A DNA stretch of 64,000 nucleotides from a virus. The DNA is taken from positions 111,953 through 175,952 of IMG/VR virus record IMGVR_UViG_3300037258_000514; one strand, written 5' to 3'. Made by a program: the position numbers and the translations under genes. Under the pieces are notes generated by a model. It did no database searches. It saw only the letters and a program-made list of their open reading frames with translations, and was not told the DNA's origin. This document shows positions 54,459 to 60,492 of this stretch, piece by piece. The number at the start of each line of letters is the position of its first letter. The stretch's first letter is position 1.

Positions 54459-55595
54459 ATGCATGAAATTTTAAAGACAAACACAGGAGATATTGAAAAG
54501 AAATTATTTATCCCCTTTGTCAAAGCCGATGCAGTGAAAAGAGAAGTATGGGGCGTTGTAACTGCGGAGTCTCCTGATAAAGAGGATGAAATTTGTGACT
54601 ACGACTCAACAGTTCCTTATTACAAAGAAATGGTTGCTGAGATGTCTAAAGCAACAGATGGAGCAAACATTTTTCCTTTACGAGCGATGCATGGGTTAAT
54701 TGCTGCTGGTAAAGGCATTGCAATAGAATTCCGTGATGATAAAAAAGAAGTCTACATGGGATTTAAAGTCGTAGATGATGCCGAATGGAAAAAAGTTGAA
54801 GAAAATGTTTACACAGGATTTAGTCAGGGCGGACGCTACATTAAGCGTTGGAAAGATGGAGATAATACAAGATATACAGCGAAACCAATTGAAGTTAGTC
54901 TTGTAGACGTTCCTTGCTTATCCAGAGCAACTTACGATATGGTTCGCGCTGATGGAACGATAGAAGTTCGCAAGTTTGCAAACCTAACAAAAACAGTATG
55001 TCCGTGTGGATGCGCAAATTGTAAAGAAAATAAGTGCGCTTCATGTTCTGCTGAAACGAAGTGTGATATTAGTGGAACTTCCACAAAAGCAGTTAAATAT
55101 CTTGTTACGGCTAAAGATGGAACAGGGCATCTTCCTGTTAGCGATGAAGATGGAAAACCTAATCATCGTTTAATGGGTGCAGCTTGGGCTGCTTTGTTTA
55201 ATCCAAAGGGACATAGAGGTAATAAATACGCCGGTCCCGATAAGGAAAAAGCAAAGAAGAAACTAAAACAACTTTATGCTCAAGAAGGACTAGATACGCC
55301 TACTGAGAAAGGCGAAAGAATTGATGGTCTATTAAAGACCATGATCGAAGATCGGATTCAGCGTAAAGCTTATGGATTCCTTGGTAAAGGAATGTACACA
55401 GTAAGTAGATTTGCGCAGATTACAGAAGATTTAAAGTATCTCTGGATGGCGTTAGAATATGAACGAGAATCAGAAGGAGATGAATCACCAGCAACAGATG
55501 ATTTGCAGGAAATTTTTGTAGACCTACTCGATTCTTTACTATCTTATACAGAAGAGCAAGTTGAAGAGGAGAAAGAAAAAATCCACGCAGCTTAA
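54459..55595 (+). CDS. prohead protease-like protein with Cys-rich insert
   Basis: VWGVVT.E.PD...LRAMH...YTGFSQGG...EVSLVDVP. Confidence 0.8.
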   Translation: MHEILKTNTGDIEKKLFIPFVKADAVKREVWGVVTAESPDKEDEICDYDSTVPYYKEMVAEMSKATDGANIFPLRAMHGLIAAGKGIAIEFRDDKKEVYMGFKVVDDAEWKKVEENVYTGFSQGGRYIKRWKDGDNTRYTAKPIEVSLVDVPCLSRATYDMVRADGTIEVRKFANLTKTVCPCGCANCKENKCASCSAETKCDISGTSTKAVKYLVTAKDGTGHLPVSDEDGKPNHRLMGAAWAALFNPKGHRGNKYAGPDKEKAKKKLKQLYAQEGLDTPTEKGERIDGLLKTMIEDRIQRKAYGFLGKGMYTVSRFAQITEDLKYLWMALEYERESEGDESPATDDLQEIFVDLLDSLLSYTEEQVEEEKEKIHAA

Positions 55596-55625
55596 CAATC
55601 CGCTACAGCGGTAAATAGGAGAATC

Positions 55626-56432
55626 ATGAAACCAGATCAACTAGAAAAGGCAAGAGGCAAGTCTCTTGTTGCGCACTTTAAGAAGGTTGCGGCGCATCAT
55701 GAGAAGATGGCAGATCATCATGAGAAGTGTATGAAGGCTCATGAAGCTGCAAGTGCTCATCATGAATCTATGATGGGAAAAGCTGAAGATCCGATGCATG
55801 GACATCATAAAGCAAAAGCTGCTTTCCATAAGTCTATGGCGGGCAACCATGAGAAGGCTATGAAAACACATACTGCAACTGCGGAACATCATCAAGCAAT
55901 GGCAACAGCACATGATGACACTGCCGATGATGATACAAAGAAAGCAGCGTTTGCTAAACTCGAAATCGAAATTCCTACAGGAGATACTCAAGTGACCGAT
56001 GTAAATAAAACAGCAAATGTTTCCACAGCAGCCGCTGTTGCTGCAGCAGTTGCAGCAACATCAACAGATAACGCAGCAGCAACAAACGCAGCAGCTACCA
56101 CAACAACTGCAGCAGATTCTATTGCTGTAGGAACAGACTTTGCCGACTTTTACAGTAAAGCACTTGAAAAGGGGCTAAAGGGCGCTATCGAAGGCGAACT
56201 TGAGCGTTTAATGAAGAGTCCTGAATTTGGTGCAGTTGTTCAGGAAAAGCTTGCTAAGATGATGCTTGAAAAATTAGGTGCAGCCGAACCAGCAAAAACA
56301 TTTGCTGTTGTACGTACACCTGATGCAATGACTACTCAGAAGACCATTGCAACAACAGGTGCTACACCGACTGTTCCTTCAGCAGCAAAAGTTGATGCAC
56401 AGTTCTTGGATCTAGTTTCAATGGGCAACTAG
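55626..56432 (+). CDS. scaffold-like protein with His/Met-rich N-terminus
   Basis: Position between protease and capsid genes; HHEK repeats, Ala/Thr tract. Confidence 0.6.
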   Translation: MKPDQLEKARGKSLVAHFKKVAAHHEKMADHHEKCMKAHEAASAHHESMMGKAEDPMHGHHKAKAAFHKSMAGNHEKAMKTHTATAEHHQAMATAHDDTADDDTKKAAFAKLEIEIPTGDTQVTDVNKTANVSTAAAVAAAVAATSTDNAAATNAAATTTTAADSIAVGTDFADFYSKALEKGLKGAIEGELERLMKSPEFGAVVQEKLAKMMLEKLGAAEPAKTFAVVRTPDAMTTQKTIATTGATPTVPSAAKVDAQFLDLVSMGN

Positions 56433-56541: not shown

Positions 56542-58533
56542 ATGAGAATCAATCAAGAAAATTACGTCCAGAGAGTATTAATGGGACGTGAAGCCGTTGC
56601 TAAGGCGCTTTCAACAGATGCTATTAAAGATTTGTGTAAGCGTACAAGAGACTTAGATCCTTCTTCACAAGATCCTACTAAGAAGTGGACGTTAGATCAC
56701 CCTCTTGTAAAGGCAACTAGCCGAGCCTTAATTAAGGCTCAATATGATGCTATCCAAGAGCTGATGAAAACCAATCCTCCCGGACTTGGAACATGGCTGG
56801 GATTTAACTTCTACGATCTTCGTGGACCTGCTTACTTCCTGTTTCCATTACTAACGCCCTTTATTCAGATGATCCCGAAGAGGGGAAAAGTTAATGCAGG
56901 CGTAGGTACAGTGGCGCACTGGAAGGCAACACGCAATCCAAACAGTACATACATCTATGCTGGCGTGCAAGAAGGTCAGCGCAACGCAACAGCAACACCT
57001 AACGAATTCGATTTCCTTGCAACATACAAGGAACTCGGTATGGAAGGTGGAAACACATTCACAAGCCAATGGGCTGGTGAAGGGTACACAGATAACCTAG
57101 CAGACGAACATTTCCGTAACCTTGCTCGCCTTCGCTTGCAAGAGGAAATGATTACACTGCTTGGAAACTCTGGTACAGCAACTGGTAACCTTGGTTTTCA
57201 AATGGGACAGGCACCAAACATTACAGCAACACTGGTGTCTGCTGATACATTTAATTCGCCTGCTTCAGCAGGATTCTCTTCTGCAACAAACGTGTCAGCT
57301 TGCGTTGTTGCAATTTCCGGAATGGGAATGAATCCTGGTGGACAAGGCGGCTACAACAGCCCGCCAACAATTACAAACGGACTAGTACCAACATCAACAC
57401 GTCAGAACGTTGATGGAACCACGTTGGCAGTTAACGGCGGAACATCGCAGATTTCAAACGTTAACGCATACGTAACAACAAATGCGACTGCCAAATGGGT
57501 ACAGCTTACTTGCGCAGCAGTTCAGGGTGCCGTGGGCTATGCCTGGTACATTTCAACAGGCGGCGTGGTTGCCGCTGCTGGAAATAATACACAGGGCGGC
57601 TGCGCTCTGGCACAAATTACACCTTGGCCAAAAGCAGTTATCGGTGCTGCGGCGTTAGGTGGTGCGCAACTTGGTAACGCAACAGGACTCAGCACTGACT
57701 ACAGTTATCAGACAACAGATTTTGATGGATTGCTAACTTATGCGTTCAAGAATGGTTACTGGAACGACATGGGCGGCGGTACATTTACACCTGTTGGCAA
57801 TGGTCAGATTGCTGAAGTTGAAACCGACTTGCAATATCTGTGGAATAACTATCAGGCACAACCTGATGCAATTTGGTGTTCCTCAGACGTGCGTGCCGAA
57901 CTAGATCAAGCTGTACTGTACTCTTCAACAGGTACAAACTCCTTTATCTTCCAGTACACACGTGATAGTCAAGGAGCAATCCTTGGTGGTAACATGGTAA
58001 CTGCGTATAAGTCTAAATATTCAGTTAACCCTGAAGGTGGAGCAGCAATCCCAATCAGACTTCACCCGATGCTACCACAGGGCACGTTGTACTACGATAT
58101 TAACACAAACCCATACCCGCATAGCAGAGTACCTGCTGTTAGGGAATTCATGACACAACGTGATTACTATGCCATTGAATGGCCGATCGTAACTCGTGAG
58201 TGGACGTATGGTACATATATTCACGAAGTACTCGCTCACTACATGCCATGGATAAGTGCTGTGAGAACTGGCGTCGGACGTTTTGTAGCGCCTTGCTACC
58301 TAGCCGCAGTAGCATTTGACGAGAACTTCTACACAGGTCCAAAAACACAAGCTGTTCGCAACTACTTACTTGGTTGGGAGCAGAAGTCGGGACTTGGCAA
58401 GATCGTTGTTGGCTTCTACAGACTACACGGAAAAGCCGCAGCCGAACTTGCGCAGAAGTCTTCGTTCGCAAAGCGCGTACTACGATCTGTATTTGATCGA
58501 GTGCTTGCTAAGACCGAAGCTGCTGCTAAATAA
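56542..58533 (+). CDS. major capsid protein with extra C-terminal domain
   Basis: YDL...LFP.LTP...IP; RLQEE...LGN; PIRLHP.LP.GT; RDYYAIEWP...YGTY..EVL; strong SD; position after scaffold. Confidence 0.8.
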   Translation: MRINQENYVQRVLMGREAVAKALSTDAIKDLCKRTRDLDPSSQDPTKKWTLDHPLVKATSRALIKAQYDAIQELMKTNPPGLGTWLGFNFYDLRGPAYFLFPLLTPFIQMIPKRGKVNAGVGTVAHWKATRNPNSTYIYAGVQEGQRNATATPNEFDFLATYKELGMEGGNTFTSQWAGEGYTDNLADEHFRNLARLRLQEEMITLLGNSGTATGNLGFQMGQAPNITATLVSADTFNSPASAGFSSATNVSACVVAISGMGMNPGGQGGYNSPPTITNGLVPTSTRQNVDGTTLAVNGGTSQISNVNAYVTTNATAKWVQLTCAAVQGAVGYAWYISTGGVVAAAGNNTQGGCALAQITPWPKAVIGAAALGGAQLGNATGLSTDYSYQTTDFDGLLTYAFKNGYWNDMGGGTFTPVGNGQIAEVETDLQYLWNNYQAQPDAIWCSSDVRAELDQAVLYSSTGTNSFIFQYTRDSQGAILGGNMVTAYKSKYSVNPEGGAAIPIRLHPMLPQGTLYYDINTNPYPHSRVPAVREFMTQRDYYAIEWPIVTREWTYGTYIHEVLAHYMPWISAVRTGVGRFVAPCYLAAVAFDENFYTGPKTQAVRNYLLGWEQKSGLGKIVVGFYRLHGKAAAELAQKSSFAKRVLRSVFDRVLAKTEAAAK

Positions 58534-58571
58534 GCAAAAATTCTGTTCCGCACCAGAACAGATAATCCGGA

Positions 58572-58646: not shown

Positions 58647-59105
58647 ATGTACAGACGCTATGCTGAACAGGGAAATATGGGTACAGCTGCAATGACTTCT
58701 TCAGCAAAGTCATTAGTTTTGCTGATTTCAACTGCCGCTATTCGCCCCTATGTTTATGATTTCACTTTCGGTACTACCGGTACCCCAAGTGATTCAGTTG
58801 TTACACTAACTGCAACGAGGTTTACATCTTCTGCTGCCACTAACGGAACGGCTTTTACACCGAGTCTGTTAGATTCTCTAGATGCTGCATCTACAGCGGC
58901 TTCGATTATCGCTGTTACAGCAGAACCTACTATTGGCGTTGTTCTATTCCAAGTAGGTTTAAACGTACGTGCAACATATAGATGGGTTGCAGCACCTGGA
59001 GGCGAACTTATTTGTCCAGCAACAGCTAACGCCGGTGTTGCTATTAGAGCTTTGTCGCCAGCGTATACATTAGATGCCAGTGCAACAGTTTACCATGCTG
59101 AGTAG
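58647..59105 (+). CDS. probable virion structural protein
   Basis: Ala/Thr-rich, beta-strand character, follows the capsid gene. Confidence 0.6.
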   Translation: MYRRYAEQGNMGTAAMTSSAKSLVLLISTAAIRPYVYDFTFGTTGTPSDSVVTLTATRFTSSAATNGTAFTPSLLDSLDAASTAASIIAVTAEPTIGVVLFQVGLNVRATYRWVAAPGGELICPATANAGVAIRALSPAYTLDASATVYHAE

Positions 59106-59168: not shown

Positions 59169-59801
59169 ATGAAATATATAGTAATTTGTGTTGTACTATT
59201 TGCTGCTTTATCTCTTTCTGCTCAAACATTTGGACCATACCCTGCATTTTGTGATCTTGTTCCGACAGGAGTAAACGCTCCGTTATATCAATATGGTAAT
59301 AATATAGTACTTGGTTCGGATGGATGTGCTAAGATAACATTTGTTACTTCTGCTGTTTTCTTAGGTAATCTTGGTGGACAAGCAGGAGCAGATACTTCTT
59401 GTCAGCAAGCAGCTAATACTGCGGGATTACCCGGGAAATATAGAGCTTGGTTAGATACTAGTTCACATCTTACACAGGTTCCTCTTCCCTATGTTTTAGT
59501 TGATAATGCCCAAACAATTACAACTTTAGCTATAGTTGCACCAAATTGGGTAGCTATATCAAACGGCGTTTTAACTATTCCAATTAATGAAACAGAACTT
59601 GGAACAACGGCTCCCGGAAAAGCATGGGCTGGGCAAGATTCTCACGGAGTGCCAACAGGATTAGATTGTGTAGGTTGGACATCATCTCTTCATTCTGATG
59701 GAGGTGGTGTAGGTTCTCCTCTCGCTACTGATGGAACATGGAGTAATTACGGTTCTCGAAACTGTGATGTTCCGCAATCATTATATTGTTTTCAGCAGTA
59801 A
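59169..59801 (+). CDS. secreted DUF1554/endostatin-like domain protein
   Basis: Signal peptide; FVTS...GNLGGQAGADTSC...YRAWL...C.GWTS...LYCFQQ. Confidence 0.8.
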   Translation: MKYIVICVVLFAALSLSAQTFGPYPAFCDLVPTGVNAPLYQYGNNIVLGSDGCAKITFVTSAVFLGNLGGQAGADTSCQQAANTAGLPGKYRAWLDTSSHLTQVPLPYVLVDNAQTITTLAIVAPNWVAISNGVLTIPINETELGTTAPGKAWAGQDSHGVPTGLDCVGWTSSLHSDGGGVGSPLATDGTWSNYGSRNCDVPQSLYCFQQ

Positions 59802-59811
59802 GAGGAATTTA

Positions 59812-60492
59812 ATGATTTCCCTTCTCTTACCGACAAGAAAACGTCCTGAAAAACTTGGTCTGATGGTTTCGTCTATTAAAGAGACAGCGTTTATTCAACC
59901 TGAAATAGTTGTTTATGTTGACAACGATGATAAAGCTAGTATACATAAAGCTAATGAACTTGGAGTTAATACTATCGTTGGGCCAAAACTTGTTTTTACA
60001 GACTACTGGAACAAGTGCTATGAAAAAGCAACAGGTGATATATTAATGATGGCTGCTGATGACTTAATTTTTAGAACACATAATTGGGACGTAATGGTAG
60101 AAGAGGAGTTTAAAAAATCTGAAGATAAAATTATCCTTGTTTACGGACGCGATTTGCACCCGCGGGTAAGCATTCCTTCTCACCCTATAATTCATCGTAA
60201 ATGGGTTGACGCTGTAGGATATTTTAGCCCGCCTTACTTTCAAAGCGGAGGGTGTGACATCTGGCTTAACGATGTTGCTGCTTTTCTCGAAAGGAAACAT
60301 TTCGTTGATTTTACTGCAGAACATATGCACTACACAGTAAGAAAAAGTGATCTAGATGAAACGTATAAGGCGCAGATTGCCCGACGTAAAGAATACAACG
60401 TAACAGATTTATATTATGCTATGATAACAGAACGAATGGAAGATGCTGCAAAACTTATGAATGTAATAGAGAAATCTGCCCCTGTACATTAA
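59812..60492 (+). CDS. GT2 glycosyltransferase, paralog of 41343-42011
   Basis: ISLLLPTRKRP...YVDNDD...ADD...WD...EHMH; ATG 59812 with GAGG SD. Confidence 0.85.
   Translation: MISLLLPTRKRPEKLGLMVSSIKETAFIQPEIVVYVDNDDKASIHKANELGVNTIVGPKLVFTDYWNKCYEKATGDILMMAADDLIFRTHNWDVMVEEEFKKSEDKIILVYGRDLHPRVSIPSHPIIHRKWVDAVGYFSPPYFQSGGCDIWLNDVAAFLERKHFVDFTAEHMHYTVRKSDLDETYKAQIARRKEYNVTDLYYAMITERMEDAAKLMNVIEKSAPVH

Follow-up and report, generated by a model that had tools for sequence, protein, structure and literature searches.

The DNA analysed here is a stretch of 64,000 nucleotides (positions 111,953 to 175,952, hereafter the window) from the IMG/VR record IMGVR_UViG_3300037258_000514, a 176 kb record of an uncultured phage. 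Its major capsid protein gene encodes, directly behind the capsid proper, a C-terminal tail of 79 residues that starts with a cysteine. Judged by profile comparison, this tail is a divergent member of the CFI-box-CTERM superfamily; the homology is well supported, although the curated threshold of the family is not reached. From its distribution among related phages, the tail is an optional, horizontally shuffled module that was added to an HK97-fold capsid protein. The gene and its parts are as follows.

56542..58533, plus strand: major capsid protein gene, 663 amino acids including the tail, plus stop codon; continuous open reading frame
56542..58293, plus strand: capsid body, residues 1-584, predicted HK97 fold with a large beta-rich insertion; ends ...GVGRFVAP
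58294..58530, plus strand: CFI-box-like C-terminal module, residues 585-663 (79 amino acids), assigned from the NF041770 match, hhalign and AlphaFold2
58294..58296, plus strand: TGC codon of Cys585, the invariant residue 1 of the module

The capsid protein

The reading frame passes from the capsid body (...AVRTGVGRFVAP) into C585 (TGC, 58294-58296) and on through 78 further residues to the TAA stop codon at 58531-58533. An earlier note on this DNA, made from the letters alone, had described these residues as an extra tail behind the apparent capsid end. This description was borne out by the continuous open reading frame (ORF) and by the same in-frame tail in 74 of 118 full-length relatives; with so many carriers, the tail is not the result of read-through or of an assembly artefact.

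The note's identification as a capsid protein likewise held. According to its AlphaFold2 model, the product of 56542..58533 is an HK97-fold major capsid protein with a large beta-rich insertion, since the model matches phage capsid chains in the PDB. The model, computed from an alignment of 89 relatives, has a predicted local distance difference test (pLDDT) score of 77.5, with the tail part predicted to be helical, and its best Foldseek matches in the PDB are the capsid proteins of phages SU10, Pa223 and SPO1 (E 1e-6 to 1e-5, probability 1.00). In addition, the family phrog_13692 matches residues 77-579 with an E-value of 6.5e-67. The genes located 5' of the capsid gene code for a portal protein (PF04860), a head-morphogenesis protein, a protease-like and a scaffold-like protein (the last two within 54459-56432); the capsid gene lies in a head module.

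Assignment of the tail to the CFI-box-CTERM superfamily

The module occupies the extreme C-terminus of the protein: its first residues, CYLAA, are residues 585-589, the protein ends at residue 663, and the tails of all tail-bearing relatives begin with C[WYF][ILV]AA. The NCBIfam model NF041770 (CFI-box-CTERM) aligns residues 1-70 of the window tail with model positions 1-68 of 69, at an E-value of 0.002 and 17.9 bits; its curated cut-off is 40 bits. Across 18 non-identical capsid tails, NF041770 is the sole family that recurs, with a match in 17 of the 18 and a best E-value of 3.8e-6, and none of them reaches the curated threshold.

The homology rests on the profile-profile match to genuine family members. 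These were taken from 301 genomes of the phylum to which an Acidobacteria metagenome-assembled genome (MAG) holding a related phage contig belongs; they score 62-94 bits, and nine of them were aligned. With hhalign, the capsid tails match these members at 97.75% (E 1.3e-12) over 71 columns, and both alignments begin at the Cys. All 74 capsid tails have this Cys, as do 142 other carriers and the nine canonical CFI-box domains. A joint alignment of 43 sequences shows no variation at C1, A4 and Y42 and almost none at R22 and A50. The CFI-box-CTERM pattern recognised in the earlier note is thus upheld by the end-to-end alignment and by hhalign, while the score of the single window tail stays below the family cut-off.

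Capsid tails and canonical NF041770 domains have in common a C-terminal module of approximately 70 residues, an invariant first Cys followed by aromatic-Ile-Ala, a conserved Arg, the motifs G..V..(L/Y)Y and ...A..I/V..., and the same helix pattern. The capsid tails differ in that they start with CW/CY-I-A-A instead of CFIATA, contain an insertion of 2-3 residues (E-D/N-F-x-T-G) and carry LYR.(Y/H)G instead of YY..SP. They also differ in context: they sit on a virus capsid protein, whereas the nine canonical carriers have TPR, zinc-ribbon or PASTA N-termini.

Other resources gave little. Pfam contains no family that matches the window tail, a Hint domain included, or the canonical members; a PDB sequence search with the tail returned nothing below E 0.14, and in the ESM Atlas only unnamed clusters were found for it (score at most 0.85). 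Fold searches of the PDB with the tail (Foldseek, E > 2.8; VIA-align, best Z 4.6) are both uninformative for a small helical bundle. In our literature search, no publication was found that names the CFI-box or its motifs.

AlphaFold2 predicts the tail alone, from the 43-sequence alignment, with a pLDDT of 86.2 and helices at residues 2-7, 16-31, 33-55 and 57-78. Capsid tails are basic, with a median isoelectric point (pI) of 9.9 and a net charge of about +7 (range +3 to +11); the pI of the capsid body is 6.5. On inspection of its sequence, the tail contains no hydrophobic stretch of membrane-spanning length and ends in charged amphipathic helices (...FAKRVLRSVFDRVLAKTEAAAK). The tail is thus predicted to form a compact basic four-helix bundle without a match to a solved fold.

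Capsid relatives with and without the tail

The earlier note had proposed to compare capsid homologues with and without the tail. From the best 120 relatives, a tree of the capsid body was built with the 118 full-length sequences. Of these, 74 are long forms (627-668 amino acids), all of which read ...FVAP-C[WYF][ILV]AA at the junction. The 44 short forms (544-581 amino acids) stop at ...FVAP or one or two residues later (e.g., ...FVAPA), so that the comparison places the boundary exactly before the Cys. In a pair of sister phages, one with the long and one with the short form, the DNA is approximately 95% identical up to exactly the last codon of the body, and the genes further downstream are not the same.

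On the body tree, at least 10 gains or losses of the tail are forced by well-supported branches, and parsimony counts 18. The histories of tail and body differ: a tail sequence flavour requires 2 changes on the tail tree versus 10 on the body tree, and the patristic distances of the two trees correlate only weakly (Spearman 0.26). All relatives at 30-50% identity are tail-less, including those of two cultured Brevundimonas phages, and the tail is therefore, from the sequences at hand, a later acquisition in the capsid lineage. These two Brevundimonas phages are the only cultured phages with capsid relatives, and both relatives are distant; a tblastn search of cultured phages with the window tail gave no match. 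The tail evolves under purifying selection, with a median ratio of nonsynonymous to synonymous substitutions (dN/dS) of 0.32, versus 0.16 in the body. No body residue, Cys or other, was found to co-vary with the presence of the tail.

Five tail-bearing records contain exactly one copy of the tail each, on the capsid gene, and the source phage has one only as well. At tail-less loci, no tail-like ORF occurs in any frame within 4 kb, and five whole tail-less phage records, two of them 100% complete, hold no copy anywhere. We therefore rejected a split gene or a relocated tail in the tail-less phages. A tail made by frameshifting, as in 10B of T7, was rejected because every tail is in frame with the capsid body, and a disulfide between body and tail because there is no co-varying Cys.

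Records of this capsid family (G302-G311, which stand behind the loci L002-L061) differ widely in size: the two 100%-complete tail-less phages have 87 kb and 179 kb, tail-bearing ones 152-180 kb. One related phage contig (L084, JABCZL010000017.1, 123,707 bp; cf. L007) is placed in a MAG labelled Acidobacteria, which may hint at the host or be a binning artefact. A scan of the genome collection with the tail profile found only this phage contig.

The same module on other proteins

Among 1.84 billion representative proteins, 367 matched a profile of the capsid tails at E <= 0.001. The 149 carriers that were inspected have the match at their extreme C-terminus, beginning at the Cys, usually after a linker rich in Gly, Ala, Ser or Thr, with a median of approximately 4 residues behind the module. 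The residue directly before the Cys (position -1) varies (P, G, A, S, K, F, Y, L, I). Many carriers have a hydrophobic Gly/Ala-rich stretch before the module or a membrane helix at the N-terminus. NF041770 also matches 97 of 142 other carriers, with a best E-value of 3.6e-10.

Several carriers are phage proteins: tail proteins (phrog_1101, phrog_4271), a virion structural protein (phrog_6121) and members of a 'DNA ejection' family (phrog_598). Others resemble the baseplate protein of gene transfer agents and FliD. In the cultured Puniceispirillum phage HMO-2011 (NC_021864.1), the module is carried by gp25, a hypothetical protein of 706 amino acids encoded in the tail-fibre region (L113:3102-5222). 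The protein ends ...SAFISSKF-CWVAREVYGEGDPRW..., with the module behind a Gly-rich hydrophobic stretch, and this marine phage could be a tractable test system.

A second group of carriers, which we had not expected, consists of precursors of peptides made by the ribosome and modified after translation (RiPPs). P0125 (L082:6001-6471) combines a mersacidin-type leader with a core of 23 residues in front of the Cys, and its gene lies beside genes for LanM and a C39-peptidase ABC transporter on a bacterial contig of 228 kb. P0247 and two tandem genes on L111 (2474-2929, 3046-3489) have lasso leaders and adjoin genes for a lasso cyclase, PqqD and a transglutaminase. In six lasso-type precursors, the segment from the leader cleavage site to the Cys is exactly 18 residues long, and its position 8 or 9 is occupied by Asp or Glu. 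P0212, at first sight a stand-alone 'M-C...' protein, turned out to be a lasso precursor with a mis-called start, and P0166 was discarded as a spurious match of a repeat protein to the LYxKYG stretch only. On a 5-kb contig with a 266-amino-acid carrier of the module, the neighbouring 397-amino-acid protein (L079:1763-2956) shows a weak Hint/Vint-like match (E 4.6e-5, below cut-off).

In its position directly behind lasso and lanthipeptide cores in genuine biosynthetic clusters, the module resembles the follower regions of cyanobactins, bottromycin and triculamin. The known followers are short and each restricted to one class, whereas the module is a folded domain of 75 residues that occurs across RiPP classes and on phage structural proteins.

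Neighbouring genes and the proposed link to glycosylation

The earlier note had suggested that the tail may be linked to the nearby glycosyltransferases. This link is not supported: the GT2 family represented in the window at 59731-60492 occurs at 7 tail-bearing and at 5 tail-less loci, and a tail-less sister phage has three sugar-modifying genes directly 3' of its capsid gene. More generally, clustering of the downstream genes of 75 loci revealed no family confined to tail-bearing loci, and a sortase-like gene or one for lipid or glycan transfer that tracks the tail was found neither in these 75 loci nor in 9 phage records.

Two candidate partners were considered and rejected. When four tail-bearing full records were compared with five tail-less ones, a clamp-loader ATPase was the sole gene present in all tail-bearing phages (3 of the 3 others) and in none of the 5 tail-less phages; it marks the large-genome lineage. 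The capsid gene is followed directly by an Ala/Thr/Ser-rich ORF of 152 amino acids (58647-59105, plus strand) without a family match. Among related loci it is found in 4 of 20 tail-bearing and 0 of 54 tail-less ones, and with so few tail-bearing loci it is lineage-specific and not a partner of the tail.

The surroundings of the capsid gene contain some further features. Between the capsid gene and the GT2 gene, positions 59169-59801 (plus strand) encode a DUF1554-like protein with a signal peptide, at 27.4 bits (Pfam cut-off 27.5); the end of this ORF overlaps the start of the GT2 ORF by approximately 70 bases. The scaffold-like protein (55626-56432, plus strand), encoded between the protease-like and the capsid gene, contains His-rich repeats (HHEK, HHES, HHKA) followed by an Ala/Thr-rich stretch, and no family matches it. 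One more feature lies just behind the capsid gene:

58542..58562, strand not assigned: hairpin just 3' of the stop codon, a possible but weakly supported end of the capsid transcript

A consensus scan called this hairpin on the minus strand only, and its 1 match compares with a mean of 0.7 in shuffled sequences, which is no excess.

Possible functions of the module

We tentatively put first, without rating it as probable, the explanation that the module stays on the shell as an outward-facing accessory module for binding or anchoring; its location on the outside, its binding and the ligand are inferences. Each capsid subunit would then display one small, strongly basic, aromatic-rich helical bundle on the outside, since the C-terminus of an HK97-fold shell protein lies on the outer surface. 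The C-terminus of T7 gp10B is displayed outside. In family 1 encapsulins, which share the HK97 fold, the C-terminus of the shell protein is displayed on the outer surface as well (PMC8229669). The bundle might bind or anchor to anionic envelope material, i.e., membrane, lipopolysaccharide or exopolysaccharide, and such binding could aid adsorption or membrane association in the manner of the Ig-like accessory domains on other phage particle proteins. For building the shell, the tail would not be needed. We rank this explanation first because the positive charge is conserved along the tails, because the module is found again on particle proteins in contact with the host envelope and often follows hydrophobic Gly/Ala stretches, because it is lost and gained like other accessory capsid domains, and because no partner enzyme was found.

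Known accessory domains provide a useful comparison. With T7 gp10B, the BIG2 domain of phi29 gp8 and Ig-like domains on phage particle proteins, the tail shares the arrangement of an optional domain after the normal capsid C-terminus, presumably on the outside, the occurrence of one domain type on capsid, tail and baseplate proteins, and the ease of gain and loss. Ig-like domains are beta sandwiches, whereas the tail is predicted to be helical and is basic, so that the likeness is one of distribution and optional presence only. Unlike additions of the T7 gp10B type, the tail stands in frame on every subunit, with no frameshift variant found, and has an invariant leading Cys. Family 3 encapsulins are also HK97-fold shell proteins with a C-terminal extension, proposed to contact lipids (PMC8229669), but that extension is a membrane helix; the capsid tail has none and is unrelated in sequence.

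Several points weigh against a retained binding module. A plain binding domain would have no obvious need for a first Cys that is 100% invariant, nor for being always C-terminal; the Cys implies an extra chemistry that retention leaves unexplained. The Cys follows the capsid body without any linker. Moreover, the module follows RiPP core peptides of normal length, and RiPP follower regions are usually removed. A second explanation stands nearly level with the first, and we regard it as a serious, if still doubtful, possibility: the junction Pro584-Cys585 is cut by a protease or through an N-to-S acyl shift, brought about by the module itself, with hydrolysis of the thioester, so that the mature capsid protein is the tail-less form and a basic 79-residue piece is released. 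Processing would explain the first Cys, the terminal position, the match with the natural capsid end and the RiPP position better than a retained module. At position 1 the Cys never varies, whereas residue -1 does so freely; the module lies at the end of the protein in every case, and tail-less capsids end exactly at the junction. Likewise, the RiPP cores in front of the module have normal lengths (18 residues in the lasso precursors, 23 in the lanthipeptide beside LanM), and a partner gene is neither needed nor found. As far as sequence comparison goes, the exact ...FVAP ends, the invariant Cys and the RiPP position are compatible with a cleavage before Cys585, as proposed in the earlier note. 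For Hedgehog proteins, inteins and lipoboxes alike, the site of action is an invariant Cys at the boundary of a module. In particular, the Hedgehog C-terminal autoprocessing domain and inteins (HINT domains) share with the tail an invariant Cys as first residue of a C-terminal module, a variable upstream partner and independence from a partner enzyme. HINT domains have an all-beta fold, however, and the tail is predicted to form four helices without a TxxH-type catalytic motif. Further points against processing are the lack of an invariant His, Thr, Asp or Asn and the Pro at residue -1 in the capsids, since Pro at this position is unfavourable for intein-type acyl shifts. A leaving group would need no positive charge conserved along the whole module, and a prohead protease acts inside the shell, whereas the C-terminus is expected outside. 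The tail also does not fit sortase-type signals (LPXTG, PEP-CTERM, MYXO-CTERM), which combine a motif with a membrane helix and a basic cluster.

The remaining explanations fare worse. A covalent transfer generalises an idea of the earlier note: the junction thioester or the Cys thiol would serve to link the C-terminus of the capsid protein with a lipid, a glycan or a lysine of the adjacent subunit, or disulfides between tails would cross-link the capsomers. Both the invariant Cys and the exact boundary would be put to use. Capsids with covalent cross-links are known, e.g., the isopeptide chainmail of HK97. The capsid of phage Milano is held by a disulfide network (PMC10491603). We nevertheless consider such a transfer improbable: the glycosyltransferases do not track the tail, neither a body Cys nor any other body residue co-varies with it, and the module also occurs on cytoplasmic RiPP precursors, where disulfides are unlikely. 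A load-bearing cross-link is disfavoured because the tail is frequently lost. There is similarly little to expect from a transient aid to assembly, i.e., an intramolecular chaperone, solubility tag or membrane tether that serves unassembled subunits or procapsids and is without function in the mature particle. Many close relatives do without the tail, which is both basic and amphipathic, and head assembly in T4 is membrane-associated; on the other side, separate scaffold-like and protease-like genes are already present, and the module is also found on proteins that form no shell (RiPP precursors, TPR and zinc-ribbon proteins). Chance resemblance or a non-functional read-through can be regarded as refuted for practical purposes. 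The single-sequence match to NF041770 is indeed far below the cut-off, but the profile-profile E-value of 1.3e-12, the start of the profile matches at the Cys (149 inspected of 367), the purifying selection on the tail and the confidently predicted fold all speak against it.

Implications for the CFI-box family and its phages

New in this study are the capsid context with its clean presence and absence, a phage and RiPP branch missed by the curated model, and the shuffling of the module. The divergent branch that escapes NF041770 comprises at least 367 representative clusters. A more far-reaching idea, which we hold to be unlikely, is that the CFI-box module is a self-contained processing device, in which an N-to-S acyl shift at X-Cys gives a thioester through which the upstream protein is either set free or joined to an amine. 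If this were true, the module would mature lasso and lanthipeptide precursors and release or anchor cell-surface proteins, and the phage lineage would obtain from it a trimmed capsid protein or a new covalent capsid cross-link.

The capsid lineage represents a natural experiment, where close relatives either have the module or lack it, with a clean difference at a single codon. Retention of the module would make it a new kind of decoration of the capsid surface. Cutting or ligation would point to a new protein-processing chemistry common to viruses, RiPP pathways and cell-surface proteins.

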